DNA of 64,000 nt from positions 6,778 to 70,777 of the IMG/VR virus record IMGVR_UViG_3300042997_001465. One strand, given 5' to 3'. Source of the stretch: a virus (taxonomy: Duplodnaviria; Caudoviricetes). The position numbers and the translations under genes were made by a program. Below the pieces are notes generated by a model. It did no database searches. It was not told where the DNA came from and saw only the letters and a list, made by a program, of their open reading frames with translations. Below, in pieces: positions 1,827 through 26,373 of this stretch; within the stretch, counting starts at the first letter, position 1; each line of letters opens with the position of its first letter.

Positions 1827-2252
1827 TCATAATTTATCAATATCCCTTAGATAATGTATCAATCGAGTGAATGACTGTGTTGGATTATCGGATGTTGTAT
1901 CTAAATCAAAAAAGTTTTCAGTTGGTGACTCATATCCTGCTACCTTTGGTAAATCTTTAGTTTTTTTACGATTATTGTGAACATATATTTCAATAATATT
2001 ACTATTGATAAGTGATTTGAATTCTTCTCTATGTTGTTTCGATGTGTCCGTCATAGCAACTACAACATCGCAATTATTTTCCAATAAAAAGCTTGAAATA
2101 ATCTGAGCCTGTCCCAGTTGAGAATGATGTGGGAAATCAATAAAGAAAACATCCTTTCTCCAGTTTCTTTTTTCGGTTTGTAAGAAGTCTCTTAACTTAG
2201 TACCCAAAACCGTCTTACCTGCGCCCGTTTGTCCTGTAAACCAATATATCAT
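1827..2252 (-). CDS. degenerate adenylylsulfate-kinase-like P-loop protein
   Basis: MIYWFTGQTGAGKT Walker A, IEIYVH and YESP motifs; the DGDxxR segment is missing. Confidence 0.55.
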   Translation of the reverse strand: MIYWFTGQTGAGKTVLGTKLRDFLQTEKRNWRKDVFFIDFPHHSQLGQAQIISSFLLENNCDVVVAMTDTSKQHREEFKSLINSNIIEIYVHNNRKKTKDLPKVAGYESPTENFFDLDTTSDNPTQSFTRLIHYLRDIDKL

Positions 2253-2304
2253 AACTTAGTTTTTTATAAGTATCTTTTTTTTAATTATTTAAAAACGTAG
2301 TTAC

Positions 2305-2952
2305 CTACGATTCTTTTTCAGATGGAACTCTATTAATAACATATATTGGAATTTCATGACTACCATATCCCGCATTAATTAAATAATGATAATCTTTTAT
2401 ATATTGATTATGACAGTGTGAATATACATTCTCAGGTATCTCGCACAAATCATCATAAAATTTTTTTAACAAATTATATGGTAAAAAATAAAAATTATCA
2501 TCCCAATATTCCACATCATTTCCCATTTTTGATTTACAAATAAGATTTATCTTTGTATAATCGAATTCATAATCAAAAACACTTTTTTTATAAAATAAAT
2601 CAAATCTTTGAATTATAACGTAATCATATTCAACGCCATCTTCTAAAATTAATTTAATTGTTTCTTTAAATCTTTTATTACGTTTTGTCCATCTAACACC
2701 CAAATCAGTTTCCGTTTCATTTACCATATGAGTGAGTTGTAATTTTTTAAACTTAAAATCATCAATAAGTTCTGGTAATTTTTCTGTAAAGTATGTTGAT
2801 GAATAGAATGTTATATCATTCTCTCCGTAAAGATATTCTTTATTATTTTCTAATACATTTTTATAATTTACATCTAATCCCTCCCATCCCGGCATCCAGT
2901 GTTTTAAATTCTTTTGATAATGTATTCCAAATAAACCTATTGCGTATTTCAT
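2305..2952 (-). CDS. putative glycan-modifying protein (RxDL family paralogue)
   Basis: Likely start MKYAIGLFG at 2952, directly after upstream stop; DYVIIQRFDL and DDNFYF motifs. Confidence 0.55.
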   Translation of the reverse strand: MKYAIGLFGIHYQKNLKHWMPGWEGLDVNYKNVLENNKEYLYGENDITFYSSTYFTEKLPELIDDFKFKKLQLTHMVNETETDLGVRWTKRNKRFKETIKLILEDGVEYDYVIIQRFDLFYKKSVFDYEFDYTKINLICKSKMGNDVEYWDDNFYFLPYNLLKKFYDDLCEIPENVYSHCHNQYIKDYHYLINAGYGSHEIPIYVINRVPSEKES

Positions 2953-2953
2953 A

Positions 2954-3985
2954 TTAGTTTTCAAATATAGCGGAAGCACATCCTCTACATATAGTATCGT
3001 ATGATTCCTGTACTTTTTGTTGATGTAACGCAGTCCCCCAAAAATCTTTTAATTCCTGTGTTTTAAAATCCCCAAACTCAACTTCCATATCATAATCGTT
3101 GCAACATAAAAATGTCTTTCCGGCTGCATTTACATGGACCCATCCAACAGGTCTTCCACCTACTTCTCTACCATTACCACACCCAATTACTTTTTTAGTT
3201 TCATCACCTCTTTGTAAGTTTCGTTTTATTGCTTCTTTGTTGGTCATTATATGGTCTAACAGTCCAGCTCTATCAATTAAAGATGGTACATCAAATATTT
3301 GCAAACCAGGAAATAATTCTTTTGCCTTATTTGTTTGTGTTGCCAACTCACCCGTTATAGGGTCTAAATCCATATCAATAGGAAATTCAGGTCCTTTATC
3401 CAACCAACCACCCCTATCGCTAAATGAATTATTATTAGAACCATTGACTTGTATTGAAAACGATTTGTTTATAACCATATCAGGTAGTTTCTCCATTGCA
3501 TAATTTATATTTGAAATTAACTTATCAAATTGCTTTATGTTTATACCACTTCGCAAACTCCAAACTTCAGGCTCAAATGCTGGGATATTCAAACATATAC
3601 CATTTACTACACCTTTATATTTTATAAGTAAATCTACTCTTTCCGGTGTCAAAGGAACTCCATTTGATAATACCATAAAACACAATCTATACTTTTGGCA
3701 TATTTGCAATAATTCCTCAAAGTGGGGATATAAAAGAATTTCGTTATAGTGTGCGGTATAAAATCCTCCAAAGTTTTTATGAACTAGTCCATCTGGCTTT
3801 TCTCTTTCATCTATTAAGTTTTTAATTATCTTTTCTAATAATTCAGGACTCATTACCTCTTTACCACTTGCTGGATTGCCTTTATATTTTACTGGGCAAA
3901 ACCAACATCTTGCATTACATACCCCATATGGGTCTAATTGCATTTGGTGGATTTTATAAGTTTCGAATTGTTCTTTTACTGTCAT
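2954..3985 (-). CDS. radical SAM protein with SPASM/twitch-like C-terminus
   Basis: CNARCWFC (CxxxCxxC); C-terminal VNAAGKTFLCCND...CRGC; start at 3985 forms an ATGA overlap with upstream stop. Confidence 0.85.
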   Translation of the reverse strand: MTVKEQFETYKIHQMQLDPYGVCNARCWFCPVKYKGNPASGKEVMSPELLEKIIKNLIDEREKPDGLVHKNFGGFYTAHYNEILLYPHFEELLQICQKYRLCFMVLSNGVPLTPERVDLLIKYKGVVNGICLNIPAFEPEVWSLRSGINIKQFDKLISNINYAMEKLPDMVINKSFSIQVNGSNNNSFSDRGGWLDKGPEFPIDMDLDPITGELATQTNKAKELFPGLQIFDVPSLIDRAGLLDHIMTNKEAIKRNLQRGDETKKVIGCGNGREVGGRPVGWVHVNAAGKTFLCCNDYDMEVEFGDFKTQELKDFWGTALHQQKVQESYDTICRGCASAIFEN

Positions 3986-4926
3986 ATCAATACTGATTTT
4001 TTTGCTGTATTTTGTATTAGTTTCCAATATTCATAAGAAGTAGTTCCTTCTCTAATATCTAATACTTCGTTATATGGTAATTTGTTCATATACTCTGCTT
4101 TATAAAATAACCCACTTGTTGAATTTACAACTCCTGCATTATGAAATATATTGCAAGTTTCCCACAAATTTTCAGGAGATGTAGCCCAACTAAATTCCAT
4201 ATTAGGATGGCACTCTGTTTTATACCCCTTTTTCCACGCGTTCCATAATACCGCCCACATATCAGCACACCATATTTGTAGTGTGTGGTATTTTGGGTTT
4301 TCCATTAGTTTAATTCTATTTAACTCAGTAATATTAACGAATAGTTTTTCACATTCAATTTCTACATTATTCCAAAATTCATAGTCAATTCCTTTCATTA
4401 TGTATTGTGCACCAATTCCATTCAATTCATTTTCTTCAACAACCTTTTCGTCAATTCCCATAATAGAACACATTGCTTGTAGGATATCATCTCCTTTTGA
4501 TTTTATATAAGAGTGAGATATATACCATCTACAATCCGAACCATACCAGTTTTCATCATTTACCATTTCTTTACTTATCCATTGGCCAATCGGCTTTGTG
4601 AACGCAATATCGCAATCATGATAAAAAATTACATCATTATGAATTTCCGGTCTTGCAGCCCAATGTTGTTTTAATATATTTGGACGAATTGAAGACGTGT
4701 ATCCTTTGTTTCTTCTCGTATCATTGTAAAAGAAAAACCTAACATAATTGTATTTTTCCGCTAATTTGGTCCATTGTTCTGGAATTACTCCATTTTCCGC
4801 ATAACAAACTACATCCATGTTATTTGGATTAACTCCCATTTCAATAAAATTGTGTATCATTACTTCAACCTGCCATGTATAATATGGAATTGCGGGTTGG
4901 GCACATACGAAACGTAAATTCTTCAT
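3982..4926 (-). CDS. HPAT/SERGT (GT95/GT96)-like peptidyl O-glycosyltransferase
   Basis: Ordered motifs PYYTWQVEVM, GYTSSIRP, YHDCDIAFTKP, WCADMWA and IFH parallel plant HPAT motifs (PYxxWQxxxM, GYxxxNRP, EPDHxFxxP, WVLEMY, IIH) as recalled from the family. Confidence 0.65.
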   Translation of the reverse strand: MKNLRFVCAQPAIPYYTWQVEVMIHNFIEMGVNPNNMDVVCYAENGVIPEQWTKLAEKYNYVRFFFYNDTRRNKGYTSSIRPNILKQHWAARPEIHNDVIFYHDCDIAFTKPIGQWISKEMVNDENWYGSDCRWYISHSYIKSKGDDILQAMCSIMGIDEKVVEENELNGIGAQYIMKGIDYEFWNNVEIECEKLFVNITELNRIKLMENPKYHTLQIWCADMWAVLWNAWKKGYKTECHPNMEFSWATSPENLWETCNIFHNAGVVNSTSGLFYKAEYMNKLPYNEVLDIREGTTSYEYWKLIQNTAKKSVLI

Positions 4927-4967
4927 AACCTTTATTTGTATATATAATTATTACATTTTTATATTTT

Positions 4968-6353
4968 CTACGAACAAACTCCAGATACATATTCAATTAA
5001 TACAGTATCACTTGATGTGAATGTTTTATTTGTAAATGTATGTTGGCCAGTTGCATCAACTTGCACTTGTCCACTTAATCCACCATTGATATATAAAGAT
5101 AAACATGATGTTGAAACGAAGCTTGATATTTCTACAATTATATCCGAACCAGTTCTACTAGCTCCCTCTGCATCTACTTGTTGACCCGTTGATATTGGGA
5201 AAGTTCCTGTGGTAGTTACATAAAAATATACACCGCCAGGACCATAAACATCGCTAATCAATCCACTACCAGATGTATTTTTTATTGTAAATGTTCCTGC
5301 AGGAGCGGTTGTTGTAGTTGTAGTTGTTGTAGTTGTTGTTGTACTCGTTGTACCCGTAATACAACTTATCACAACCGCTTCATTAGTTACGTTTGATGTA
5401 TTATTTTTATCTCTAACCGCAACATAATAAGTTCCGTTTGTTGTAATTACTGGGTATATTGTATCCAATCCATTTCCAATATCATCAAATCCTCCAGCCA
5501 ATGCGTTTACAGCCGATGTATGTACAACTGATGATGCTTGATACACACCACTACCACCACTTATACTACTCCAAAGTATTGTAGGATTGGCTTGGTTGCT
5601 TACACAAGGTGCGGTGAATCCAAATTCAACAGGTACCGCGGAAATCGTTGTTGTAGTTGTAGTCGATGTAGATGTAGTTGTGGTTGTTGGTGCCGCAGTT
5701 GTTGTTGTAGTTGTCGTTGTTGTAGAAGTTGTAGTTGTAGAAGTTGTAGTTGTAGTAGTTGATGTTGTTGATGTAGTTGTTGTAGATGGTGGTAACGTTG
5801 TAGTTGCCGAAATACAACTTGCCTTATCAGTCAAAACCCCTCTATATGAAACGATTGCATAATTAGTTCCATCCGAATAATATCCATTTGGTGCAACCGT
5901 TGTCAATCCACTATTTGTAAATAATTGAGTACTATTAACGAATTGGTTATTATTTTTTACATAAAAAGTTCCAGTAGTTCCAGCACATGCCGATGATACT
6001 GCTATTGCATCGTATCGTAAAATTAATGTGGTTGATGGTGCTAATGTTGTAGTTGTTGTTGATGTTGTTATTATCGGTGCCGATGTTGTTGTGGTTGTAA
6101 GATTTTCAGAATTACCCGTACCAGAACAATCAGAAGCTCCATCACCAATTATTTCAATAGTTGCTGCTGAAGATTTTGATATTGAACAATCTACTCCAGG
6201 AGTTATCCCAGTACCCTGTGCCTCAAACCCAATTGATTTTAAGCGTGAATTTATTAGTTGTGCTGGTGGGGTATAACCACTACAATCTACCCATTGAACG
6301 TATGAACTATTATTACCGGTAACAGATACTCTATAAATTTTAACAGCTGGCAT
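4968..6353 (-). CDS. mucin-like poly-Thr modular protein, putative virion fibre/decoration
   Basis: Three Thr tracts separate Cys-bracketed beta-rich modules; no signal peptide. Confidence 0.7.
   Translation of the reverse strand: MPAVKIYRVSVTGNNSSYVQWVDCSGYTPPAQLINSRLKSIGFEAQGTGITPGVDCSISKSSAATIEIIGDGASDCSGTGNSENLTTTTTSAPIITTSTTTTTLAPSTTLILRYDAIAVSSACAGTTGTFYVKNNNQFVNSTQLFTNSGLTTVAPNGYYSDGTNYAIVSYRGVLTDKASCISATTTLPPSTTTTSTTSTTTTTTSTTTTSTTTTTTTTTAAPTTTTTSTSTTTTTTISAVPVEFGFTAPCVSNQANPTILWSSISGGSGVYQASSVVHTSAVNALAGGFDDIGNGLDTIYPVITTNGTYYVAVRDKNNTSNVTNEAVVISCITGTTSTTTTTTTTTTTTAPAGTFTIKNTSGSGLISDVYGPGGVYFYVTTTGTFPISTGQQVDAEGASRTGSDIIVEISSFVSTSCLSLYINGGLSGQVQVDATGQHTFTNKTFTSSDTVLIEYVSGVCS
5647..5790. 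repeat. ACN-codon low-complexity tract encoding poly-Thr
   Basis: Plus strand (gttgta/gttgtt/gtcgat)n; encodes TTTTSTTSTTTTTT... Confidence 0.85.
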
Positions 6354-6400: not shown

Positions 6401-8293
6401 TTATTGTGATATATAAACAATAGTATCTGTACTTGATAATTCAGTAATTCGGATACCTGCTCCCCTTTCTTGCGTTGGGTATGTTAATGATGTTATTGTT
6501 TTTGTTTTTCCAGAATTAATCATAGCTCCCATCGATTTGGTTAAAATACAATCAGTCCAATATATATAACCCCCTCTATTAGCTCTACATATATATTCAG
6601 TGCAAGTTGTTACTATTGGTATCGGTGCTAGAGTGGTTGTGGTTGTGGTTGTTGGAGCTGTAGTTGTTGTTGTACTTGTTGTAGTTGCTGCCGAAGTTGT
6701 TGTAGTTGTTGTAGTTGGAGCTGCAGTTGTAGTTGTACTAGTTGTAGTTGTACTAGTTGTTGTTGTACTAGTTGTTGTAGTTGTTGCGGCAGATTGGTAA
6801 TTTGCGTATAGAAAATATTGAGATGAACCTAATAAACTTCTAGTACTACTCCAATCATTACTTAATCCGGTTGTATATATCGTTGCTGTTGCCTGTGCCA
6901 ATAAAGCCGATTTAACTTGTGCCGGTGTATATGATGGATTTAATTGTAATACCAATGCGGAGACCCCAGCTAATTGAGGGGATGCCATTGATGTACCACT
7001 AATGTTACATTGCTTATATGATGCGTTTAAATAATATGATTGTCCACTCTTTGTATTTGTATTAGATGTTGAACTCATTATATCAGTACCAGGTGCATAT
7101 ATAGTAACACCCGGTCCAGCTTCACTATAAGTTGCCTTTTGGTCTAAAGTTGAACTATATGCAGTACTATCAGAAGAACCAACTATTATTGCATTTGGAC
7201 TCATAGGGGATGAACCTCTATGATAATATTTTGTACCTTGGTCAGTAACTACATAGTTGTTATAATCAGTTCCACCAGATACATCTATTTTATGAGAACG
7301 ATTACCGGCTGCTATACAAACTACAACACCTGCTGTAATCAATTCCTCAATATCCACATCAACCGAACCTACTCTAACATTAGTAGCGTATGTAAAACCA
7401 ATATTTGCACCAGAAGATGGATACAGTCCATAGTTAGATAAACGATAACTTGAGTTTCCAGTTGTTGATGCATCAGTATATGATGTACCTCTATAATTTA
7501 ATGAAGTTACTGAATTATAACCAGTCAAATATCCCCAACTCATATTAACTACCGTTGGTCTACTTCCTGCTTTTGCAGTATGCCAAATTTTTATACAATC
7601 AAATGCGTATGTAGTTGATATACCAGTACTACCATCACCACTTCCTTCCAATCCATTTAACTTAACAGAATATATTCTTGCTTCTTTGGCCCAACCATAT
7701 GTTTTACCGGCAGCAATACCTGCTACGTGAGTACCATGTCCATCGTAATCTCTATAATGATTTGCGTTTTGTGTAAATAATCCACTTGTAGTTCCCCAAT
7801 CTATTTGATAAACTCTACTATTTCCTAATGAGTCTTGAAATTCCGGATGGTCTACTTGCAATCCACTATCTTGAATTACAACATCTACTCCCGTACCATC
7901 TAATGTATATTGATAACTACTTGTTGTTGTAGTACCAGTACCATAAACATTTGTTGCATTTGATGAACGAATCAATCCCCAGTTAAGATACGCCCCACTA
8001 TCCGATGTTGTTTTTGTAAAATCCCCAGTTTGAGTAACTCTGGGTGCCATAATGATATCCGTTCTGAATTCCGGTGGTATCTCTACACAATAAACTCTGT
8101 CATCTCCTCTTAATAATTCTGCTTCTTCATCTGTCAGCAAATACCAACATTGACGTAATGATGCCGGTCTTTCATTTGTAAATTCTATTCTACGATTTGG
8201 AATATAAAGTAATCCATCGGTTTCGGATTCCATGTCATCCCAAAACCCATCGTAATCTATATCGGCCTTTAACGCGACATTGTATTGTTTCAT
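6401..8293 (-). CDS. S8 subtilase with prodomain, poly-Thr stalk and C-terminal Cys module
   Basis: Triad motifs VVIQDSG, DGHGTHVAG, SGTSMASP; oxyanion AAGN; ~50-aa Thr tract; no signal peptide. Confidence 0.9.
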   Translation of the reverse strand: MKQYNVALKADIDYDGFWDDMESETDGLLYIPNRRIEFTNERPASLRQCWYLLTDEEAELLRGDDRVYCVEIPPEFRTDIIMAPRVTQTGDFTKTTSDSGAYLNWGLIRSSNATNVYGTGTTTTSSYQYTLDGTGVDVVIQDSGLQVDHPEFQDSLGNSRVYQIDWGTTSGLFTQNANHYRDYDGHGTHVAGIAAGKTYGWAKEARIYSVKLNGLEGSGDGSTGISTTYAFDCIKIWHTAKAGSRPTVVNMSWGYLTGYNSVTSLNYRGTSYTDASTTGNSSYRLSNYGLYPSSGANIGFTYATNVRVGSVDVDIEELITAGVVVCIAAGNRSHKIDVSGGTDYNNYVVTDQGTKYYHRGSSPMSPNAIIVGSSDSTAYSSTLDQKATYSEAGPGVTIYAPGTDIMSSTSNTNTKSGQSYYLNASYKQCNISGTSMASPQLAGVSALVLQLNPSYTPAQVKSALLAQATATIYTTGLSNDWSSTRSLLGSSQYFLYANYQSAATTTTTSTTTTSTTTTSTTTTAAPTTTTTTTSAATTTSTTTTTAPTTTTTTTLAPIPIVTTCTEYICRANRGGYIYWTDCILTKSMGAMINSGKTKTITSLTYPTQERGAGIRITELSSTDTIVYISQ

Positions 8294-8332: not shown

Positions 8333-9691
8333 CTAAGGACAAGCACCGTCATTCGCGTAAACACTAATTGTTGTTCCTAAAGTTATAGTTGCTCCAGTTA
8401 TTGTGAATGTACCTCCGGATGGACTTGCTGAATGGCAGGTATCAACACTATTACTATCGGTAAATATTATGTGTCCCCCAACTGTATTACTACCATAAGA
8501 AATAACTACATCCTGTGTTCCTGTTTCTGTACTTGTAAAGCTTCCATTATCTCCACCTGTAAGAGTGAAATCAGGACCCGCACCACTCCAAGTTACGGCC
8601 ACCCCATTAATAGTCATACCTGTAATTGGTATATCAAATGAACTTACGGTATTAATATAGATATCAACGTTTGGCGATAGTGTGGTTGTGGTTGTTGTAG
8701 TTGTAGTTGTTGTCGATGTTGTAGTACTTGTTGTCAAACCTGCACAAGCGGTGTAATCCGTAATTTCTCCGTCAGTTGTTACTACTGCTGCGTATTCAGT
8801 TGCCCCCTGTGTCAATTTTCTCCATCCAGTACCGCCTATATACGGAGTTGATAAACCGGTATTAGTATATAAAATCATAGTAACATACGGTACAGTGTTT
8901 CCAGGAGCTGCGTAAAGAGGAATCGTTGGATTACCGGTAGTACATGCATCGTAAGCAGTACCAGTAGATGTACTATCAATTGTATATGCCACAGGCGCAG
9001 CGGTAGTTGTAGTTGTAGTTGTAGTTGTAGTAGTTGTCGATGTTGTTGGTGGTTCAGTTGTTGGCGGTGGTTCAGTCGTTGTAGTTGTAGTTGTAGTTGA
9101 CGTGGTTGTGGTTGTGGTTGATGTTGTAGTACTTGTTGTTGAAGTTGTTCCAGGACAATTACCACCCGCAGTTATTACCGCACCATTTGTTCCTATTTGA
9201 AATGCGAGTTTAGGGTCAGTTCCACCAGAAGTTAATGCCACCCATAAGCTTCCACCATTCGTTGGAGTTCCTGGATATACATCATATATAATATCAGTTG
9301 GTCCAATTAAATTAAGATTAGACTTAGTTGAATAATAAGGTCTAACAGTAGCATAGTTTGTACACGCATCCGATAGTGTTGAATAAGTAGGTGAACCATT
9401 ACCTAAATATTCGTAAACTGGAGGAGCGGTCGTTGTAGTTGTGGTTGATGTTGTTGTAGTAGTTGTGGTTGATGTTGTTGTAGTATTTTGTAAATCCTGA
9501 TAACGAGGGCATCTTAGTGATGTATATCCCGCATATGCAACTACCGTTGTATCTACAAACCAATAAGTATCTATTTCACCCTTGGTCATTATTTTATTTG
9601 CATTATATCCACCAGGATAAGATGCCTTTGATGTAAACCCCATAGTTGCCACATCACCAAATGTTATAAGATAATTATTAGCTTTACTCAT
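8333..9691 (-). CDS. mucin-like poly-Thr modular protein, putative virion fibre/decoration
   Basis: Three Thr tracts (one with TTEPP repeats) and two DAC...C modules; start overlaps upstream stop. Confidence 0.7.
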   Translation of the reverse strand: MSKANNYLITFGDVATMGFTSKASYPGGYNANKIMTKGEIDTYWFVDTTVVAYAGYTSLRCPRYQDLQNTTTTSTTTTTTTSTTTTTTAPPVYEYLGNGSPTYSTLSDACTNYATVRPYYSTKSNLNLIGPTDIIYDVYPGTPTNGGSLWVALTSGGTDPKLAFQIGTNGAVITAGGNCPGTTSTTSTTTSTTTTTTSTTTTTTTTEPPPTTEPPTTSTTTTTTTTTTTTAAPVAYTIDSTSTGTAYDACTTGNPTIPLYAAPGNTVPYVTMILYTNTGLSTPYIGGTGWRKLTQGATEYAAVVTTDGEITDYTACAGLTTSTTTSTTTTTTTTTTTLSPNVDIYINTVSSFDIPITGMTINGVAVTWSGAGPDFTLTGGDNGSFTSTETGTQDVVISYGSNTVGGHIIFTDSNSVDTCHSASPSGGTFTITGATITLGTTISVYANDGACP

Positions 9692-12288
9692 TATTTACCT
9701 TCCAAAATATTTATTCTATTTTCCAATTCAGCTATACGCTTTTCTAAATCAGCTATCTTCAAAGTATGTACATCCGAATAGTTTACACTATATTTCTCAT
9801 TATCATAATTAACTACATCTGGAAATAGCTCTAACAATTGTTGTGCCGAATAACCATATCTTATTTTGTCTTTATTACTATCTGTACGAGTAAATTTAAT
9901 TACGTCAACTCCTCTAAGATTTACTATTGGATTTAATTGAATTATATTTTTAAATCTAATATCCGAACTTTCATTGAATGCACCTGCTGTGATAGTAGTT
10001 CCACTAATAGAAACGCCGGTCTTTGCGGTTGCAGTATTAGCTGTACCATTAGCTGTTAATATAAGGTCTGCTGTTGTTGGTGAGATTGAAGTAAATCCGG
10101 CTCCACTTGTTCCAGATGAACCACTTCCACCCGGTGCTCCATTAACTCCACTTGTTCCAGAAGTTCCCGAAGAACCACCACCACCACTTATACCTGACGT
10201 TCCAGATGAACCATTTCCTCCAGGTGCTCCACTAACTCCACTTGTCCCTGATGAACCAGATGTACCAGATGTTCCGCTACTTCCAGATGTTCCAGAAGAA
10301 CCAGATGTTCCTGATGAACCACCGCTTCCTGCAGTTCCCATTGTTCCAGAAGTTCCGGATGTACCACTACTTCCTGAAGTTCCCGATGAACCAGATGTAC
10401 CTGATGTTCCACTACTACCAGAAGTTCCTGATGTACCAGATGTTCCGGATGTTCCACTACTTCCGCTCGTTCCTGATGTACCAGATGTTCCGCTACTTCC
10501 TGAAGTGCCACTTGTACCCGATGTTCCTGAAGTGCCACTTGTACCCGATGTTCCTGAAGTGCCACTTGTACCCGATGTTCCTGAAGTGCCACTTGTACCC
10601 GATGTTCCACCAGTACCATGTGTACCAGCTGCATCTATCCATATACTACCATTGTATCTATAAATGTTAGTATCTGATGTATTATAATAAATTTGTCCTG
10701 CAGAAGTACCAGACGGTGATGAACTATATGCTGGTATTTTAATTCCAGTTGTTATATCAACAGATCCTGTAAATTCATGCTTATCATCGGTAGTGTTACC
10801 AAATTTAGATGAACCACTTTGAAATAACACAGATGATGTTGTATAAGTTGTATGAATTTCTTGTGCAGTTATTTTTCCAATGATTTCAATATCAGCTCCA
10901 TTTACAATAATTGCTCCTTTTAACGATGCGGTATATGCTTCGATGCCACCTATCTCAGCTCTAAATGATGATGTTACAATTGATAACGTACCATCCTTTC
11001 CAATTTGAGATGCTGTGAATGAATTTAATGCACCAGTTATATACAACATCCTAGTATCATTTGCCAATTGTGAACTGGTAAATGCGTTTATTGATGAAGT
11101 TACAACTGAAAGTGTAAAATCTTTATTTATTTGAGAACCGGTAAATGCGTTAATTGATGCTGTAAATGTCGATACGGTATTCGCTTGTCCAATTGTAGAA
11201 CCAGTGAATGCATTTAATGAAGCAGTTACTATCGAAAGTATAAAATCTTTACCAATTTGAGATTGTGTAAAAGCATTCAACGAAGATGTTACTACCGCCA
11301 ATGTACCATCTTTACCTATCTGCGATGCAGTAAATGCATGTAATGATGAGGTTGTTTGGTAGAAGTATCTTAATGAAGATGTCACTTCTGCTAATGTACC
11401 ATCTTTACCTATCTGCGATGCAGTAAATGCGTGTATTGAAGAAGTTGTTTGGTAGAAGTATCTTAATGAAGATGTCACTTCAGCCAAAGTTCCATCTTTG
11501 CCTATCTGCGAACCAGTAAATGCGTTAATAGATGCTGTAAATATTGATAACGTATTCGTCTGTCCTATTTGAGATGCGGTAAAAGCATGTAGAGATGAGG
11601 TTGTTTGGTAGAAGTATCTTAATGAAGATGTCACTTCTGCTAATGTACCATCTTTTCCAATTTGAGATGCGGTGAAATCATGTATGGATGAGGTTGTTTG
11701 ATAAAAATACCTTAACGAAGATGTTACTTCTGCCAATGTACCATCCTTACCTATTTGAGATGCGGTGAATGCATGTATTGAAGAAGTTGTTTGGTAGAAG
11801 TATCTTAATGAAGATGTCACTTCCGCCAATGTACCATCTTTTCCAATTTGAGATGATGTAAAGAAATTTAATGATGCAGTTGTTTGTTGTAATCTTTCTA
11901 TTGTATTTGAATCGATGTTTGTTACAAGTACTCCATTATAATTTAAAGAACCAGTTATATTAACTGAACCCGTAAATAGTTGTGTATCGGTAAGTTCGTT
12001 ACCAAAAATATTACCCCCTTCGGAATATATTATACTTGCAGTTTCATATACAGCAACTATCTCGTTCACCGTTAATTTTCCGGTAATAATAACATTATTG
12101 TTAATAGTTTGAGGTCCGGTGAATGTATTACCCGCAGAACCCGTATGTGCGGAGTATTGACTGGTGTATTTACTAAAATCCTGTATTGTTATCTTTTCGG
12201 TAATACCATCGTGTACAATCGGTACATATACAATAGAACCTGATACCGTACTTATTAACGGTAATTCGGATATCTTCTTATCTGCCAT
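9691..12288 (-). CDS. tail-fibre-like protein: helical repeats, GTS collagen-like tract, C-terminal peptidase S74 chaperone
   Basis: GSVNITGSL motifs; 21/31-aa repeats; long G-X-Y tract; SDIRFKNI...YGYSAQQ...coiled coil. Confidence 0.8.
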   Translation of the reverse strand: MADKKISELPLISTVSGSIVYVPIVHDGITEKITIQDFSKYTSQYSAHTGSAGNTFTGPQTINNNVIITGKLTVNEIVAVYETASIIYSEGGNIFGNELTDTQLFTGSVNITGSLNYNGVLVTNIDSNTIERLQQTTASLNFFTSSQIGKDGTLAEVTSSLRYFYQTTSSIHAFTASQIGKDGTLAEVTSSLRYFYQTTSSIHDFTASQIGKDGTLAEVTSSLRYFYQTTSSLHAFTASQIGQTNTLSIFTASINAFTGSQIGKDGTLAEVTSSLRYFYQTTSSIHAFTASQIGKDGTLAEVTSSLRYFYQTTSSLHAFTASQIGKDGTLAVVTSSLNAFTQSQIGKDFILSIVTASLNAFTGSTIGQANTVSTFTASINAFTGSQINKDFTLSVVTSSINAFTSSQLANDTRMLYITGALNSFTASQIGKDGTLSIVTSSFRAEIGGIEAYTASLKGAIIVNGADIEIIGKITAQEIHTTYTTSSVLFQSGSSKFGNTTDDKHEFTGSVDITTGIKIPAYSSSPSGTSAGQIYYNTSDTNIYRYNGSIWIDAAGTHGTGGTSGTSGTSGTSGTSGTSGTSGTSGTSGTSGTSGTSGSSGTSGTSGTSGSSGTSGTSGTSGTSGSSGTSGTSGSSGTSGSSGTSGTSGTMGTAGSGGSSGTSGSSGTSGSSGTSGTSGSSGTSGVSGAPGGNGSSGTSGISGGGGSSGTSGTSGVNGAPGGSGSSGTSGAGFTSISPTTADLILTANGTANTATAKTGVSISGTTITAGAFNESSDIRFKNIIQLNPIVNLRGVDVIKFTRTDSNKDKIRYGYSAQQLLELFPDVVNYDNEKYSVNYSDVHTLKIADLEKRIAELENRINILEGK
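10105..10625. repeat. Gly-Thr-Ser triplet coding repeat, includes four exact 27-bp units at 10499-10606
   Basis: cctgaagtgccacttgtacccgatgtt x4 contiguous; roughly 55-60 uninterrupted G-X-Y triplets. Confidence 0.9.
10962..11860. repeat. coding tandem repeats of 63 bp and 93 bp (21-aa and 31-aa units)
   Basis: TASQIGKDGTLAEVTSSLRYFYQTTSS[IL]H[AD]F x5 interspersed with about seven 21-aa variants. Confidence 0.9.
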
Positions 12289-13849: not shown

Positions 13850-14740
13850 TTATGAATTAGAATGATTTTTTATTAGTTTTCTAGCAAAATTGATAACTTC
13901 CTGTTGTCCCAAATTATTTGCGTTTGTCCAAAACTCTACCTTTCTATCAATCGGTTTGATTTTTCCATCAAATGATGGTTTTCTATTAATATAATCTTCG
14001 GTGATATAAATACCATCCATATATACTTGTTGTATATCATGCCCCATCTTTATTGCAACTTCGGCTGCTGACATTGCGTATGTGTCTTCCGGACCATATC
14101 CTCTAAACGATTCCGGTATTCCAACAAATTCCCAAAATGATTTGGAGTATAAAGTATGCATACCACATCCAAATTTAATGACGGGTGTTCTTTTTACATT
14201 AATTTCTTTTATAGTCTGCACCGTTGTGTTTTCTATGGCTTCTCTTTCGGTTGAATATCCAATGTGTTTATCCATATAATCCGAATGACATATTACATCC
14301 CAACTCTCATCCCAAAACTTTGCCAATGATGGTGATATAATATACATACCATCCATTTGATATGATACATCCAATTGATATCGTAACATATGTTCATGGA
14401 ATAAAATATCGGTATCACAGAATATGAACTGGTCATAATCCAATTTAATAGCTTCTCTTTTTTGTTGAGTAGTTCCCCAACAGGATGTGTCTAATATAAT
14501 TTCATTTACGTTTTTAATTCCATTGAATAGAATAGCAAATCTATTTACAAAATGACCGTTTTTTAGTTCACTATTTTCCCAATCGGTTAATTCCGGATTT
14601 AGGTTTAGAGTTACCTTTAACGTCACATCATCTCTTTCATCTAAATAAAGAAATGCTTTTCTAAATAATTGCACTTGTCTTTCAAACATTTCAAGTTCCG
14701 ATGGCATTACATGAATGCAAATTAGTGTTCTTTTTTTCAT
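13850..14740 (-). CDS. GT-A fold glycosyltransferase-like protein
   Basis: FIFCDTDIL (DxD); FRGYGPED motif. Confidence 0.65.
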   Translation of the reverse strand: MKKRTLICIHVMPSELEMFERQVQLFRKAFLYLDERDDVTLKVTLNLNPELTDWENSELKNGHFVNRFAILFNGIKNVNEIILDTSCWGTTQQKREAIKLDYDQFIFCDTDILFHEHMLRYQLDVSYQMDGMYIISPSLAKFWDESWDVICHSDYMDKHIGYSTEREAIENTTVQTIKEINVKRTPVIKFGCGMHTLYSKSFWEFVGIPESFRGYGPEDTYAMSAAEVAIKMGHDIQQVYMDGIYITEDYINRKPSFDGKIKPIDRKVEFWTNANNLGQQEVINFARKLIKNHSNS

Positions 14741-15966
14741 TAAAATATATTTTTAAATAATGGTAATGTCATATCCTTTGTTCTTAAATTAAATACATGC
14801 AGTTGGAATATATCCCATTCAAAACTTCCAACCGAATCCGTTTGCTGAATAATGAATGGTATGTTCTTTATAAATTGTGTAAAGTTTTCATTTGTTAATT
14901 TAGAACCATCAAACATTATATGTACATCACCTTGCATCTCATCGCCAATTTGATGTATCTTATCGGATAAATCAAACATTGTTTCCGTTTGTTCTTTGGT
15001 TACATAACTTTGATATTCACAATCAACATACAATCTGTCACACCAAGGTTCTAACGCTTGCAATAAGTGTGGTTGACAATTATGTACCACTAATGTTGTA
15101 TCGTATCTATTAGGTACAATCGGCATCATTAACTCATCATGCAAAACATCAGTATGCCATTTTCTCCACCACTCTTTAAATTTGTTTTGTCTTAATTCTA
15201 GATACTCTTTTGAGTCTTTAGGTTTAAACCAAATAGTTCCATCCGGTAATGGTATCTCCTTTTCAATCTCAATACCATCTTTGAATCTACTACCTCTACA
15301 AGTCATATGATATACAAACGCGTCTCTACTCTGAATTAATTTATATTGCTGTAAATGGAATCTATTGAATATGTCCGAATCTTCCAACTCCATAGGTGCG
15401 AATAATTTATCATGCCCACCTATTTGTGCAAAATCTTCTTTATATAACATCCAAGGTGCAAAGATACCATTAGTAGTTTTACCCTCCATTGCATATTCGG
15501 TTTCATATACAAATTTTTGGAAAGCCGAATTATCAAATGTTTCAGGCTCCATACCAAAATCCTTAACATACTTTTCAGGACCGGGGGGATGTAGTGGTGG
15601 TTCAATACGAGTAGCACTTACAACTGATAATGGTGTTAAGTTCTTTAACATATTACCCACATAGTTTGGTGTAACAATCATATCCGAATGTAAGATAGTA
15701 ACAACAGGTGTTTCTGCTAAACTAATACCAATATCATATAATACAGTATGCCCAATTCTATCAGGACCTTCGTTTCTATATGTTTTGATATATGGTTTAT
15801 TAAGTGATTCAATCCACTCCCATGTCCCATCGTTTGAAGCATCGTCTAATATCACTATTCGATGGTAATCGTTATAATTATCTTCTATACTATGAACCGC
15901 TTGCTTTAAATATTTTAAATTATTTCGACAAGGTATAATAAATGTAATTGGTTGATATTCTGTCAT
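14740..15966 (-). CDS. GT2-family glycosyltransferase with C-terminal extension
   Basis: ITFIIPCRN, ILDDASNDGT, LHSDM, EDSD, VYH motifs. Confidence 0.85.
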   Translation of the reverse strand: MTEYQPITFIIPCRNNLKYLKQAVHSIEDNYNDYHRIVILDDASNDGTWEWIESLNKPYIKTYRNEGPDRIGHTVLYDIGISLAETPVVTILHSDMIVTPNYVGNMLKNLTPLSVVSATRIEPPLHPPGPEKYVKDFGMEPETFDNSAFQKFVYETEYAMEGKTTNGIFAPWMLYKEDFAQIGGHDKLFAPMELEDSDIFNRFHLQQYKLIQSRDAFVYHMTCRGSRFKDGIEIEKEIPLPDGTIWFKPKDSKEYLELRQNKFKEWWRKWHTDVLHDELMMPIVPNRYDTTLVVHNCQPHLLQALEPWCDRLYVDCEYQSYVTKEQTETMFDLSDKIHQIGDEMQGDVHIMFDGSKLTNENFTQFIKNIPFIIQQTDSVGSFEWDIFQLHVFNLRTKDMTLPLFKNIF

Positions 15967-15967
15967 A

Positions 15968-16585
15968 TTATGTAAATCTTAATAGTTTATAGTTTAATAT
16001 AAATGTTTCTAAATTAATATTTGATTGATATAAATAATGTCTAAGCATTTCTTCCATACCAATCAACTCACCGTATAACTCATTCGCACCGGGTATTCTT
16101 TCAAATGGTAAATTTATTCTATATGGTAACTCAAAATATAAATTCATAACATTCTTATATCCATATAAAATTTGGTCATTACAAAGTATTCTAGAATCAT
16201 AATAGGAAGGTGTTATACCATGCCCCGCTTCAATTGGAGTTAATATTGTATTTTCTCTTGGATTTAAATCAAATGTAGAAAACGCCAAATCGTTTCGTAA
16301 TTTTACAATAACATCGTCATCAGAAAAAGTGTGTTTAAAATGATTATAACATTCATATAAAGAACTCCATTGTGATATGTAATTTTCTTTATGTGGATGA
16401 TTTGAGTTATTTAACATTGTATCGGTTAATATCTTTGTTTGAATAAACTCACTATCAATTCCCCAACCCCATTCATGAGTAGACCCAATATATATTTTAG
16501 CATTATGATGTTCTGCAAACTTTTTTACATTTTGCCAAGTTTCATAAGTACCTCTCTGCTGCCCTGCTAATATAACCCGTACCAT
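15968..16585 (-). CDS. putative glycan-modifying protein (RxDL family paralogue)
   Basis: MVRVILAGQ, DVIVKLRNDL, NDQILYG. Confidence 0.55.
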   Translation of the reverse strand: MVRVILAGQQRGTYETWQNVKKFAEHHNAKIYIGSTHEWGWGIDSEFIQTKILTDTMLNNSNHPHKENYISQWSSLYECYNHFKHTFSDDDVIVKLRNDLAFSTFDLNPRENTILTPIEAGHGITPSYYDSRILCNDQILYGYKNVMNLYFELPYRINLPFERIPGANELYGELIGMEEMLRHYLYQSNINLETFILNYKLLRFT

Positions 16586-16599
16586 TTATTTTATATTTT

Positions 16600-17283
16600 T
16601 TAAATTGTTTCTAATTGATATACACCACCTTCTCCAGTTGGTCTAGTAACTCCATTGTGATTTTTATTATATAATATATTATCAATTCCTTTTATCGTTA
16701 TGCCATTTTCATGTAACCATATTGTCAAATTACTCTCGTTTGAACCAATCGAATACGATACTTCATTTAACCCATGTCTTTCTTTATTATAATATTTTGT
16801 TGGGAATTTTGATATCACATCCATAACTCTGGCATCGCCGATATAAAATTGGTCATTTGCAGTAGATTTATTAGGTAGTCCCGCCGTCACTCTATGCATT
16901 GAAGTATATAATGTATTTGGTTGTAACGTTGAAAAAAAGTATTCAGATAATTCACCGGATTGAAAATCCAAATCACATCTACTTTTTATATACCAATCAT
17001 AATCTTCTTCAATGCTATTTATTACATTTTTCAAATTCCAAAATTGCCAAAATCCAGATTGTCCTGGATCATTATTTCTATATTTGAACCAATTAGTATC
17101 TTTTAATGAAACGGTTGGTGTTGAAAATATTTTCTTTAGTGGCCACCTACTCTGTATCCAATCATATTTATAATGTTCAAAACAAGATACATAGGTATCA
17201 TAGTTACCAACAATTTTTAAATGATTATCAATTATAGTTTGGTTGCCCCTATATGGACCAGCTAAAAGTATTGCTATTTTCAT
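16600..17283 (-). CDS. putative glycan-modifying protein (RxDL family paralogue)
   Basis: MKIAILLAG, DWYIKSRCDL, NDQFYIG. Confidence 0.55.
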   Translation of the reverse strand: MKIAILLAGPYRGNQTIIDNHLKIVGNYDTYVSCFEHYKYDWIQSRWPLKKIFSTPTVSLKDTNWFKYRNNDPGQSGFWQFWNLKNVINSIEEDYDWYIKSRCDLDFQSGELSEYFFSTLQPNTLYTSMHRVTAGLPNKSTANDQFYIGDARVMDVISKFPTKYYNKERHGLNEVSYSIGSNESNLTIWLHENGITIKGIDNILYNKNHNGVTRPTGEGGVYQLETI

Positions 17284-17286
17284 AAA

Positions 17287-17985
17287 TTATTTTATACAAT
17301 TGAAATAAATCCAATTTGGATGAATATCACCAGGTCCAACTGGACCAATTATGAATTGGAAGTTAGTAAATCCAATTTCAATTAAATCCTTTTCTAATTG
17401 CTCAGTAGATTCTATACAAACATCACAGGTTCTATTAGTACCTTGGGCATTGTAATAGTTTTCATAATAACCAACCGTTGCGGGTGATGGAGAACCAAAC
17501 CCCATTTGAGCCGTAAAAACTCCTCCATTTTTTAAAATACGATATATGTCTTTCATAATTGAATATCTTATATCATACACACATATATGTTGAAGTGCAA
17601 TTGTGCTCATTACAAAATCATATGTATTTGATTCTATGCAATCAACTCCCACTCCATTTGAAACATATAAATTACATCCGATTCCATTTGAAGATATATA
17701 TTCTTTAGCATTTTGTATATTAACTGGACTTATATCAACACCATCCAATCTTTTAAATCGGTTTGAATATTTTACTATATTTCTACCAGGACCACATGCG
17801 AAATCTAAACCTATTTTTTCATTCTGAGAATCTATTGGGGTAAATAAATTTTCATAATCTTTCCACTCATTGTGTAAATCAAAACTACCAACCACGGGGT
17901 CTCTATTTTCTTGAGACCAACCAGATGCCAAAGAGTTATATTGATTTAACTGCATTTGAGTGTATTTGTTTGTACTATCTATCAT
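17287..17985 (-). CDS. class I SAM-dependent methyltransferase
   Basis: LDFACGPGR, GVDIS, YDFVMSTIALQH, LKNGG. Confidence 0.85.
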   Translation of the reverse strand: MIDSTNKYTQMQLNQYNSLASGWSQENRDPVVGSFDLHNEWKDYENLFTPIDSQNEKIGLDFACGPGRNIVKYSNRFKRLDGVDISPVNIQNAKEYISSNGIGCNLYVSNGVGVDCIESNTYDFVMSTIALQHICVYDIRYSIMKDIYRILKNGGVFTAQMGFGSPSPATVGYYENYYNAQGTNRTCDVCIESTEQLEKDLIEIGFTNFQFIIGPVGPGDIHPNWIYFNCIK

Positions 17986-17986
17986 T

Positions 17987-19360
17987 TTATTTTTTATTTT
18001 CTAAGTAATATTTTAAATCTTCCGGTGTTCCCAATCCCCACATTTTATCAATGTTAAATGTTTTGAATTTTTTACCATCTGCTATTCCTTCATTGTAAAC
18101 AGGACATACATAGAATTCATTATTAACTCTCATATTTTTTTCAATCATTTGTTCTGCATACTTTACATAATCAGAACCTTTGGCCCAATAGTAAACACCA
18201 ACAGTTGCGATATCTGAAATTGGATTCTTCTCTTGTACTTCAGTTACATATCCATATTCATCCACTTTAGCGAATGACCATTTAGGATGTGTTGAATGGA
18301 ATGATAAAATACCTCCATCAACTTTTTGCTCAATCATCTTATACATAAACTCATTTGAATCCCACTCTAAGAATTGGTCAGAGTTTGCCATAAGCAATGG
18401 AGCATCTGAATCAATAAATTCTTTTGCTAATAGAGTAGTACAAGCCGCTCCCTCAGTCAACCCATCAACTTCCACAATCTTACAATTAGGAGTGATTAAA
18501 TTTAATAGAGTATCTAAGTTGTACTGCTCTCTATGTGATTTCTGAACTACATAAATAAATGTGGCATCTATGTTTAGGTTATCCACTACAACCTGAATCA
18601 TTGGTTTACCTTCTACTTCAATGAGTGGTTTTGGAAATGTATAACCTGCTTGTGCAAATCTACTACCAGCTCCAGCCATTGGGATAAGAACATTCATCTT
18701 ACCACCTTGCCATTTTGGAATACTCATACCTTTATTTTCGTTTAATTTGTTTTCTATTTTTTCCAACGTTAAATCATGCGGATTATCCACTCTTAATACA
18801 TTTGCTCTACTTCTACTTGCCGCTAATAACCCATGTGGCGAATCTTCCACAATTAGAGTTTCTTCCGGCAAACATCCCATCATACTCATTGTCTTCCAAT
18901 ACATCTCAGGATGTGGTTTAGAGTTCTTTACGTCCTCATTAGAGATGATTAAGTCCATATACTCAATTATACCTATTTTTGCTAACATAACCAACACAGA
19001 CCTTCTAATTGAATTTGATGCACATGCCAATTTATAACCTTTGTTACGAAGTTCTTTGAATACTTCTATCAATCTAATATCAGGTTGTAATTGAGATATT
19101 GCTTCAATTGTTAGGTGTTGCTTTCTATACCAAATATCATCATAAAAATCCGTATGCAATCCTTTGTTCTTTGTAAGCAATTCTAACTTTTGCGTTGTCT
19201 TTAATCCATCGTATATCGACAGATGTTCAGCTTCAGTAATTACATACGAATTACCAGTTATAATTTCTATTTCTCTTAAAGATTGGTTTAGAGTATCGTA
19301 GTGGATTTGCTTAGCCTCTACCAATACACCATCCAAATCAAAAACTATTAATTTTGTCAT
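17987..19360 (-). CDS. HAD phosphatase fused to sugar/polyol-phosphate nucleotidyltransferase
   Basis: VFDLDGVL...KPHP...VEDS followed by MNVLIPMAGAGSRF...KPLI...NSDQ...GTPEDL. Confidence 0.85.
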   Translation of the reverse strand: MTKLIVFDLDGVLVEAKQIHYDTLNQSLREIEIITGNSYVITEAEHLSIYDGLKTTQKLELLTKNKGLHTDFYDDIWYRKQHLTIEAISQLQPDIRLIEVFKELRNKGYKLACASNSIRRSVLVMLAKIGIIEYMDLIISNEDVKNSKPHPEMYWKTMSMMGCLPEETLIVEDSPHGLLAASRSRANVLRVDNPHDLTLEKIENKLNENKGMSIPKWQGGKMNVLIPMAGAGSRFAQAGYTFPKPLIEVEGKPMIQVVVDNLNIDATFIYVVQKSHREQYNLDTLLNLITPNCKIVEVDGLTEGAACTTLLAKEFIDSDAPLLMANSDQFLEWDSNEFMYKMIEQKVDGGILSFHSTHPKWSFAKVDEYGYVTEVQEKNPISDIATVGVYYWAKGSDYVKYAEQMIEKNMRVNNEFYVCPVYNEGIADGKKFKTFNIDKMWGLGTPEDLKYYLENKK

Positions 19361-20049
19361 ATTATTCCTCTTTCAAATGGGTTTATATTATATTCTTCAA
19401 ACATCGGATTTAATTCATTTGCATACTCCATCATATTCCATTTACCTTTAGTAATTGCTGATGACATGAATGGAAAAACAAAAGAGTCATAATGATACAT
19501 TCCTCTCTTTGGCTCACCTCCTAATTTTACCATATAATCCAACGCATCTAAAGTTATACATCCTTCAAGTTGCCATATATTTTGGTTAGGATAATCAGTA
19601 ACTATTTTTTGTAGAGTTTCTTTTCTAAATATAGTAGGTTGAATTGAAAATCTTGCTAATCCATTTTGAATCAATGTTTCATCGTATTCATATGTTACAC
19701 CACCATCACCGGCATATATTAATTTAACGGTATTTACTTTTTTATCATTTACATATGATGCATATTTTTCAATCAAATCAAATTTTGGAAAATCTATTAA
19801 AAGCATATCTTCATGTAAGAATAATAATAAGTCATCTTCTATTTTTGATAAAATTTCAACCCATCTCTCTGTATAATTATTCGTATCATTGTAAATGATT
19901 TGAATGTAATCATTTGGTATAGACTCATTAGGTGCATCCAAACACACATATACTTTATAATCTTTTATATATTTTTTCAATTGGCCAAAACATATTGGCC
20001 ATACATCTTTTACATCCGTATGAGTGTATATAACTAAGCTTGGTTTCAT
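19357..20049 (-). CDS. glycosyltransferase-like protein
   Basis: LLFLHEDMLL acidic motif; context in glycan cluster; ATGA overlap. Confidence 0.5.
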   Translation of the reverse strand: MKPSLVIYTHTDVKDVWPICFGQLKKYIKDYKVYVCLDAPNESIPNDYIQIIYNDTNNYTERWVEILSKIEDDLLLFLHEDMLLIDFPKFDLIEKYASYVNDKKVNTVKLIYAGDGGVTYEYDETLIQNGLARFSIQPTIFRKETLQKIVTDYPNQNIWQLEGCITLDALDYMVKLGGEPKRGMYHYDSFVFPFMSSAITKGKWNMMEYANELNPMFEEYNINPFERGII

Positions 20050-21170
20050 ATTATTATAACGTTTTTATTTATTTTTTTAAGTTGTTTTTCAATTTCAGAT
20101 TTATAAACACTCATATGACTTATCATTACAACGGGTTCATCAATGTTAGCTATTATATCCGGTGATTGTACAACGATATCATATCCATATAAAAATTTAT
20201 TTTGTTTATCAATACTATTGTCTAAAAAATTTACAACATCGTTAGTATTAATGCCCATAGAAAGTATCGATTGTGTCGATATATGACACCCAAATATAAA
20301 TTTATTTTTACTGGTATTTTCGTTGAACATCTGAACTATACTTTTTGAATTATTATAACTTTTAAAAAGTTTATCGGAAACATCATTCGATGAAAATTTA
20401 TACTCTATACTATTAAATTCAATTTCATCCGATACTTTGGTACATTTAAAAAATATAGAGTGTGTTTTATAATCAACAACACTATCTATGTTAAATCCAA
20501 ATAAATTTAGTAAATTTATTAAGTCATATTTTTTATAAAAAAACGTATGTTCAAAATGTAATACATTTCCAGGTAAAAATCCATTATCAAGTATATATTC
20601 CAAATTAGGTACGGAAAAATACATAGTACCACCTTCATTTAAACATTCATTCATTTTTGTTAATCCCTCTATTGGGTTAAATAGATGTTCAAAGAAATGA
20701 CTATGTATTATTGCATCATATTTTTCACTATCAAATGATGCATCAAACCATTTTTTTATAAATTTCACTTTTGGCAATTGTATATTATCATTGGGATTAT
20801 ATTCAACAATATCCCATCTATTAGAATATTCACTTATATGCTTTGCTATTTTACAAGATGGGTCAGCCAATTCTAATACTGTTTTATTCAAAATACCATC
20901 TTTTATAAATTCGGAGAATTCCAAATAATGTAAATTCCACAATTCACCAACGGTTTCTATATTATGATTATTTTGATAAAGAATTTCAGGATTTATTAAT
21001 TCTTTTATTTGAACACACCCACATTGTGTACACTCGGTGAATGTCATATTACTTTTTGAAAAATTATTATCAAAATTAGTAACGGCTCCCATAAACGTTG
21101 GCATGTTTTTTATAGAAAAAATACTGTCCAAATCACCTTTACAAAATACACAATTATTTTTTATTCCCAT
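20046..21170 (-). CDS. NDP-sugar C-methyltransferase-like SAM enzyme with Zn ribbon
   Basis: CVFC...CTQC; HSHFFEH; YFSVPN; FEHTFFY; C-terminal Rossmann-like segment FLDNSIDKQNK. Confidence 0.7.
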   Translation of the reverse strand: MGIKNNCVFCKGDLDSIFSIKNMPTFMGAVTNFDNNFSKSNMTFTECTQCGCVQIKELINPEILYQNNHNIETVGELWNLHYLEFSEFIKDGILNKTVLELADPSCKIAKHISEYSNRWDIVEYNPNDNIQLPKVKFIKKWFDASFDSEKYDAIIHSHFFEHLFNPIEGLTKMNECLNEGGTMYFSVPNLEYILDNGFLPGNVLHFEHTFFYKKYDLINLLNLFGFNIDSVVDYKTHSIFFKCTKVSDEIEFNSIEYKFSSNDVSDKLFKSYNNSKSIVQMFNENTSKNKFIFGCHISTQSILSMGINTNDVVNFLDNSIDKQNKFLYGYDIVVQSPDIIANIDEPVVMISHMSVYKSEIEKQLKKINKNVIII

Positions 21171-22521: not shown

Positions 22522-22523
22522 AA

Positions 22524-25656: not shown

Positions 25657-25658
25657 AC

Positions 25659-26372: not shown

Positions 26373-26373
26373 A

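Follow-up and report, generated by a model that had tools for sequence, protein, structure and literature searches.

The 64-kb stretch of viral DNA analyzed here (the window) spans positions 6,778 to 70,777 of IMG/VR record IMGVR_UViG_3300042997_001465 (Caudoviricetes) and makes up most of this 70.8-kb viral record, whose completeness is estimated at about 37%. The predicted genes of the window lie on the minus strand. Near one end, an operon begins with a gene for a collagen-like tail-fiber protein, continues with three genes whose products contain poly-threonine (poly-Thr) tracts, and ends with the gene for a 314-amino-acid glycosyltransferase, which, together with its relationship to the poly-Thr proteins, is the subject of this study (Table 1). 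An earlier note on this DNA had placed the start of the glycosyltransferase gene 41 nucleotides (nt) after the last of the three poly-Thr genes, and the distance from the stop codon of that gene agrees.

The poly-Thr protein encoded next to the glycosyltransferase harbors five serine/threonine (S/T) runs, the longest of 30 residues, set between Cys-bracketed modules, and has no family match in Pfam, PHROG, or NCBIfam. In the subtilase, a poly-Thr linker of about 50 residues lies on the C-terminal side, with a Cys module at the terminus. The third protein contains four S/T runs of 15 to 25 residues each, and the start of its gene overlaps the end of the fiber gene. The fiber protein itself carries Gly-Thr-Ser triplets and ends in an S74 intramolecular chaperone. 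When the whole window was translated in six frames, 13 S/T runs of at least 6 residues were found, and all 13 fall within the three poly-Thr genes.

Table 1. Genes and features of the window, ordered outward from the glycosyltransferase gene, followed by those downstream of it and the distant glycan operon
Feature	Coordinates	Strand	Description
Glycosyltransferase open reading frame (ORF)	3982-4926	-	314 aa; ATG start; soluble GT-A; phrog_4417 member; DxD = D104/D106; late His262
Spacer between last poly-Thr gene and glycosyltransferase gene	4927-4967	-	41 nt, AT-rich (sequence read)
Poly-Thr protein, candidate acceptor	4968-6353	-	461 aa; 36% Ser+Thr; no signal peptide
Subtilase (Peptidase_S8), candidate acceptor	6401-8293	-	PF00082, E = 1.1e-34; phrog_9158
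Poly-Thr protein, candidate acceptor	8333-9691	-	452 aa; 37% Ser+Thr
Collagen-like tail-fiber protein, possible further acceptor	9691-12288	-	PF01391 and PF13884; tail-fiber PHROGs
Radical SAM/SPASM enzyme	2954-3985	-	PF04055 and PF13186
224-aa protein without known family and 141-aa P-loop protein	1827-2979	-	downstream of radical SAM gene
Glycan-building operon	13850-27994	-	14 kb; Pfam matches

Conserved core and fold of the enzyme

The 314-residue protein contains, in this order, the motifs PYYTWQVEVM, GYTSSIRP, YHDCDIAFTKP, WCADMW, and NIFHNAG. It matches phrog_4417, a PHROG without an assigned function, over its full length (E = 1.8e-60, residues 5 to 307 against profile positions 2 to 291 of 293), and belongs to no Pfam family (E ≤ 0.1) and no NCBIfam family. 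The five ordered motifs had been picked out in the earlier note, and they recur when diverse relatives are aligned in sets of 57, 69, and 78 sequences. Y76 of GYTSSIRP, D104 and D106 of HDCD, M223 of WCADMW, and H262 of IFH are invariant or nearly so in all three alignments. D104, D106, and H262 are strictly invariant in the 57- and 78-sequence alignments; in the 69-sequence alignment this holds for D106 and H262, with D104 present in at least 90% of the sequences. Q10 and W18 of the first motif and W219 and A221 of WCADMW are also found in at least 90% of relatives. The five motifs are thus the conserved core of a family and not a chance resemblance.

The family is large and widespread. Among word-sharing candidates it comprises 2,639 clusters at 90% identity, and among representatives of 50%-identity clusters 1,040 match at E ≤ 0.001 and 623 at E ≤ 1e-30. 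Homologs with approximately 29 to 34% identity occur in 77 isolate phage records, the carriers infecting Lactobacillus, Enterococcus, Staphylococcus, Lactococcus, Clostridium, and Chryseobacterium. In other relatives the domain is also fused to GT2, GT6, GT25-like, and methyltransferase domains. Many close relatives (e.g., P0063 and P0045; 394 to 417 aa) harbor an additional N-terminal domain of about 80 to 100 residues with paired cysteines (CxxC ... CxxCGC ... CP) that resembles a zinc ribbon. Loci encoding a 419-aa form (L015 and L064-L068) have no poly-Thr ORFs nearby.

The AlphaFold (AF2) model of the protein, with a predicted local distance difference test (pLDDT) score of 97.2, displays the Rossmann-like alpha/beta/alpha architecture of a GT-A glycosyltransferase and its match to solved GT-A structures extends over most of the domain. 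The first beta-strand is made up of the N-terminus, MKNLRFVCAQPA, in which there is no hydrophobic segment; a DxD motif (D104-x-D106) follows the fourth strand, and a C-terminal histidine (H262) is a candidate metal ligand. The nearest solved structures are those of GT8 enzymes (LgtC, glycogenin, an Anaerococcus GT8, GlyE from the pathway of the pneumococcal serine-rich-repeat protein, and LARGE1), of the glycogenin-like Skp1 alpha-galactosyltransferase, and of the catalytic domain of a GT24 enzyme (UGGT). These GT8 and GT24 neighbors are retaining enzymes, and by analogy the phage protein would be expected to follow a retaining alpha-hexosyl chemistry. In terms of sequence, the GT8 Pfam model matched neither the 314-aa protein (E ≤ 0.1) nor any of the 57, 69, and 78 relatives (E ≤ 10), and searches of PDB chains with the protein and with the 57-sequence profile returned nothing meaningful.

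Linkage to poly-threonine tracts

The earlier note had proposed examining co-occurrence with Thr-tract genes, and this proved informative. Among 80 related aquatic viral contigs, 55 harbor a strict poly-S/T ORF within 3 kb upstream of the enzyme gene on the same strand, usually ending 4 to 100 nt before the enzyme start. Within 3 kb downstream, a poly-S/T tract was found in none of the 80. The upstream proteins, 209 to 2,231 residues long, share no homology with one another; each of the window's poly-Thr proteins matches just 2 of the 80 loci. The conserved partner of the enzyme is therefore the tract and not a particular protein. Inherited synteny alone was considered as the cause of the linkage and rejected, since the upstream proteins are non-homologous and unrelated groups of phages show the same linkage.

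The same arrangement, with a Thr tract directly upstream of the enzyme, was present in all nine isolate phages examined (MA9V-3, 4995_1, R3.3, phiCTP1, SA2, VPE25, 9183, Semele, and SAC12B). In Chryseobacterium phage MA9V-3 the enzyme gene is directly preceded by genes for two poly-Thr proteins. The major capsid protein of Enterococcus phage 4995_1 ends with two Thr runs, and in any frame of this complete 39-kb genome, S/T runs are found only in the capsid tail adjoining the enzyme. Lacticaseibacillus phage R3.3 has a protein at the capsid position with two terminal Thr runs, Thr runs terminate the tail-tube protein of Clostridium phage phiCTP1, and Lactobacillus phages Semele and SAC12B harbor an Ig-like protein with Thr-rich repeats. 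The major tail protein of Staphylococcus phage SA2 (locus L085:5649-5930) ends in Thr8, and an overlapping out-of-frame ORF, annotated as hypothetical, encodes almost nothing other than poly-Thr; this ORF probably extends the tail protein by way of a frameshift. In Enterococcus phages VPE25 (L003:5725-5883) and 9183 (L089:5770-5892), an open Thr-rich stretch of 40 to 52 codons that has no start codon lies in the -1 frame and overlaps the major capsid gene at its 3' end, just before the glycosyltransferase gene. This arrangement suggests a programmed frameshift that would yield a capsid isoform with a poly-Thr tail. The major tail protein of VPE25 is also Thr-tailed.

Prophages of Bacillota carry poly-Thr ends on the capsid, connector, and major tail proteins, with the enzyme gene located after the tail gene. 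A prophage of Salinibacillus aidingensis (L153:2610-5986) encodes three consecutive poly-Thr-tailed structural proteins, of capsid size (398 aa), connector size (106 aa), and major-tail size (224 aa), followed by the glycosyltransferase. The major tail protein of one prophage was used to search 401 evenly sampled Bacilli genomes for co-presence of tail and enzyme. Among 22 homologous tail loci, 2 displayed a poly-Thr tail followed by the enzyme gene and 20 displayed neither; two of the latter encode tail proteins with 60 to 61% identity to the query. The profile of the enzyme family detected members in exactly the same 2 of the 401 genomes. In this small set, tail and enzyme are gained or lost together among close relatives. 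The family is thus marked by its GT-A fold, its invariant DxD and His residues, and a tight, directional linkage to poly-Thr genes that is repeated across unrelated phages.

Acceptor and role of the enzyme

We consider it likely that the protein is a soluble, metal-dependent GT-A glycosyltransferase that glycosylates the phage's own poly-Thr structural or particle-associated proteins in the cytoplasm, most likely by adding the first sugar. The acceptor, the initiating role, and an effect on the virion are what we infer here. The enzyme would transfer a sugar from a nucleotide sugar to the hydroxyls of Thr (and Ser) residues of the poly-Thr tracts in the cytoplasm of the infected cell. In the phage studied here, the acceptors would probably be the two poly-Thr proteins with Cys modules and the subtilase with its poly-Thr linker, all encoded directly upstream. 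Once the enzyme has, most likely, set the first sugar, the glycan may be lengthened and decorated by the three GT2 enzymes and the sugar-modifying enzymes encoded in the 14-kb operon, and the translationally coupled radical SAM/SPASM enzyme may act as an accessory modifier. A cytoplasmic initiating O-glycosyltransferase for phage poly-Thr proteins was what the earlier note had envisaged, and the fold, the catalytic residues, and the gene neighborhood all argue strongly for such an activity.

Several points weigh against this interpretation. The support comes from fold, conserved residues, and genomic context, and the products of the three poly-Thr genes of the window are assumed to be virion proteins from their operon position only. 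In about 30% of the related aquatic contigs there is no poly-Thr ORF within 10 kb, and the presence/absence test in Bacilli includes only two positive genomes, one of them the seed. Phage enzymes with a GT8-like fold are known to extend glycans on DNA, so the fold alone does not fix the acceptor. Moreover, approximately 45 chromosomal homologs (from Chitinophaga, Pedobacter, Sphingobacterium, and relatives) are unaccompanied by a poly-Thr ORF. The family is therefore not restricted to poly-Thr acceptors and probably also serves others, perhaps peptides. On the chromosome of Chitinophaga niastensis (L104:5995-8934), a homolog is fused to a second, Glyco_transf_7C-like domain (582 aa), a gene for a LanC-like protein follows, and no poly-Thr gene is nearby. 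This locus may represent a context of peptide glycosylation similar to that of ribosomally synthesized and post-translationally modified peptides (RiPPs).

The enzyme could also be an elongating one, with a host or another phage glycosyltransferase placing the first sugar on Thr and the family enzyme adding a later one. The nearest solved relatives do include GT8 enzymes that elongate glycans (GlyE, LgtC, and LARGE1), but glycogenin and the Skp1 galactosyltransferase are just as close in fold, and these act on protein itself or adjacent to it. The three GT2 enzymes of this phage could initiate, and fusions of the family domain to other glycosyltransferase domains are frequent; however, it is the family enzyme whose presence and absence follow those of the poly-Thr tail. 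Furthermore, no Glycos_transf_2 or Glycos_transf_1 genes were found in five complete carrier phages of small or medium size (4995_1, R3.3, phiCTP1, VPE25, and SA2), nor is a second glycosyltransferase listed in the PGAP annotation of 4995_1. As these minimal carriers lack a GT2 or GT1/GT4-type gene, the family enzyme seems to act alone in them, which favors an initiating role, although transferases of other families or host enzymes may contribute. On balance, we regard a purely elongating role as unlikely.

The target might instead be hydroxymethylated bases of the phage DNA or a polymer of the host envelope, with the adjacency to poly-Thr genes reflecting nothing more than placement in a late operon. 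GT8-like and other GT-A enzymes of phages assemble glycans on 5-hydroxymethylcytosine DNA (bioRxiv 10.1101/2023.12.21.572611), genes for nucleotide metabolism and methyltransferases are present elsewhere in the window, and VPE25 harbors a gene of the thymidylate synthase family. On the other hand, no match to this family was found in 4995_1, R3.3, phiCTP1, or the examined part of the genome studied here, and the enzyme gene resides within head/tail modules rather than replication modules. On these two grounds DNA glycosylation was set aside. Phage 4995_1 is in addition temperate, as it possesses an integrase. A search for Tet/JBP proteins gave no match in these genomes, but the control likewise matched in no genome, which makes this negative uninformative. 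The enzyme has neither a membrane anchor nor lipid-carrier machinery. Placement in an operon also does not account for an association that is found only upstream and with Thr tracts on non-homologous proteins, and we judge a DNA or envelope target to be very improbable. A catalytically inactive assembly factor or chaperone of glycosyltransferase fold that binds poly-Thr tails is hardly credible. Nothing specific speaks for it, and across about 200 diverse relatives the two aspartates of the DxD motif and the late His vary little or not at all, which is what a functional site for metal and nucleotide sugar would require.

If the poly-Thr proteins are the acceptors, several other genes of the window may contribute to their modification. 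The ATG of the radical SAM/SPASM gene (3985-3983) lies on the stop codon of the glycosyltransferase gene in an ATGA overlap. A radical SAM gene adjoins the gene of the family enzyme in 9 of the 80 related viral loci, and in relative P0203 the two are a single fused protein. A radical SAM/SPASM enzyme serves as an accessory partner in some of the relatives; that of the window displays only weak similarities to NCBIfam families. The Cys-bracketed modules of the neighboring poly-Thr proteins are candidate substrates for it. The 224-aa protein and the P-loop protein co-occur with the family enzyme in only 2 of the 80 related loci. The latter (1827-2252, 141 aa), encoded two genes downstream of the radical SAM gene, exhibits weak similarity to adenylyl-sulfate kinase (APS-kinase; E of about 7e-5) and might phosphorylate a sugar, a protein, or a nucleotide. 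The 14-kb operon encodes three GT2 enzymes, a UDP-GlcNAc 2-epimerase, a DegT aminotransferase, a GNAT protein, four methyltransferases, and a HAD-nucleotidyltransferase. It is possibly the source of donors or the machinery for glycan elongation, and its content fits an elaborate glycan on a soluble acceptor. A second collagen-repeat protein (28155-30284, 709 aa, four Collagen matches) is encoded just upstream of this operon.

Comparison with known glycosyltransferases and glycosylated virions

Although GT8 and GT24 enzymes are the closest to the phage enzyme in fold, the sequence identity is only 6 to 11% and the TM-scores are only about 0.5. The phage enzyme differs from them by an extra helical insertion (residues 182 to 232), and no glycosyltransferase Pfam model matches it. 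The structural match to A064R of chlorovirus PBCV-1, a glycosyltransferase for a major capsid protein, is much weaker than that to GT8. A064R is from a eukaryotic giant virus and participates in the formation of atypical N-linked glycans, without a poly-Thr acceptor such as that proposed for the phage enzyme.

The earlier note had described the protein as a peptidyl O-glycosyltransferase resembling plant HPAT (GT95) and SERGT (GT96). A GT-A glycosyltransferase fold is borne out by the model; membership in GT95 or GT96 was not confirmed. Neither PF23452 (HPAT) nor PF23741 (DUF7164) matched the genome of the window at E ≤ 10. PF23452 matched none of the 57 and none of the 78 relatives; among the 69 relatives there were two matches, the best at E of about 0.05 and below the cutoff of 23.9 bits. 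Five genomes with family members gave only one spurious 8.7-bit match elsewhere in the genome. In 401 Bacillota genomes nothing exceeded the cutoff; there were four weak matches (E of about 0.07), all in unrelated long ORFs, and no bridging proteins were found. Nevertheless, HPAT was the sole glycosyltransferase family that matched more than one scanned relative, although in only one of three scans. As a lead only, PF23452 is assigned to about 10% of the members of sibling ESM-Atlas clusters, and this was the case in 19 of the 30 nearest named clusters. A distant relationship with the plant enzymes is plausible but unproven, and the phage enzyme is not a demonstrated member of their families. 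GT95 is predicted to be GT-A-like and related to GT96 (PMC8476585, PMC8012813), and in plants these enzymes are type II membrane proteins of the Golgi (PMC8012813). Plant HPAT and SGT1/SERGT1 initiate O-glycosylation at hydroxyl residues of highly repetitive tracts, as we propose for the phage enzyme. The phage enzyme, however, is soluble without a membrane anchor whereas HPAT and SGT1 are anchored in the Golgi, and its proposed acceptor is Thr instead of hydroxyproline (Hyp) or the Ser of Ser-Hyp4 repeats.

A bolder possibility, which we put forward tentatively and with some doubt, is that poly-Thr together with a single enzyme constitutes a portable glycosylation tag across phages, that any capsid, tail, connector, or fiber protein acquiring a Thr run becomes sugar-coated in the cytoplasm, and that the enzyme shares ancestry with GT95/GT96. 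In such a scheme, a Thr run would be gained by C-terminal extension or frameshift, in phages whose hosts include Bacillota, Bacteroidota, and others. If the shared ancestry is true, virion glycosylation in phages would be linked to the biosynthesis of plant cell-wall glycoproteins. If the family acts in the way suggested by its genomic context, virion O-glycosylation would be widespread: it would extend to abundant aquatic phages and to those of Enterococcus, Staphylococcus, Clostridium, and lactic acid bacteria, among them phages of interest for therapy and dairy phages. It would have a bearing on immune recognition, stability, adherence to mucus and surfaces, and the mass-spectrometric annotation of phage proteins. 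A small soluble enzyme and a simple Thr tag would also be a possible tool for cytoplasmic glycoengineering in bacteria. As several carriers have been cultured, direct testing is feasible.

To our knowledge, experimental proof that phage particles are glycosylated comes almost exclusively from some mycobacteriophages, in which the glycosylation shields the virions from antibodies. In the literature searched, there was no description of phage poly-threonine glycosylation, of a phage HPAT, or of Enterococcus or Lactobacillus phages with glycosylated capsid or tail proteins, nor was there an experimental description of the family. The linkage between poly-Thr tags and an unnamed GT8-like family, seen in phages that infect Bacillota and probably Bacteroidota, well-studied Enterococcus and Staphylococcus phages among them, thus appears to be undescribed. 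The earlier note had taken the phage studied here to be a Bacteroidota phage; such a host is suggested but not established.

The closest known system is that of mycobacteriophages Che8, Corndog, and Myrna, whose virions, according to papers that cite the original work, are glycosylated by phage-encoded cytoplasmic glycosyltransferases (Freeman et al. 2023, Cell Host Microbe 31:1216). Glycans of the Che8 type are located on the C-termini of capsid and tail-tube subunits, and the poly-Thr C-terminal tails of the Bacillota relatives are likewise found on major capsid and major tail proteins. A phage glycosyltransferase tied to tailed structural proteins, as in the Che8-type system, is also seen in the family described here, in the form of directional linkage and joint gain or loss. 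The two systems differ in their enzymes and acceptors, the one described here consisting of an unnamed family (phrog_4417) without a Pfam match and a nearly pure poly-Thr tract. In the phage studied here, moreover, the tracts are internal linkers of fiber-operon proteins and not capsid tails as in the Che8 type. The hosts are also distinct, with Actinobacteria for the mycobacteriophages and Bacillota and probably Bacteroidota for the phage family examined here.

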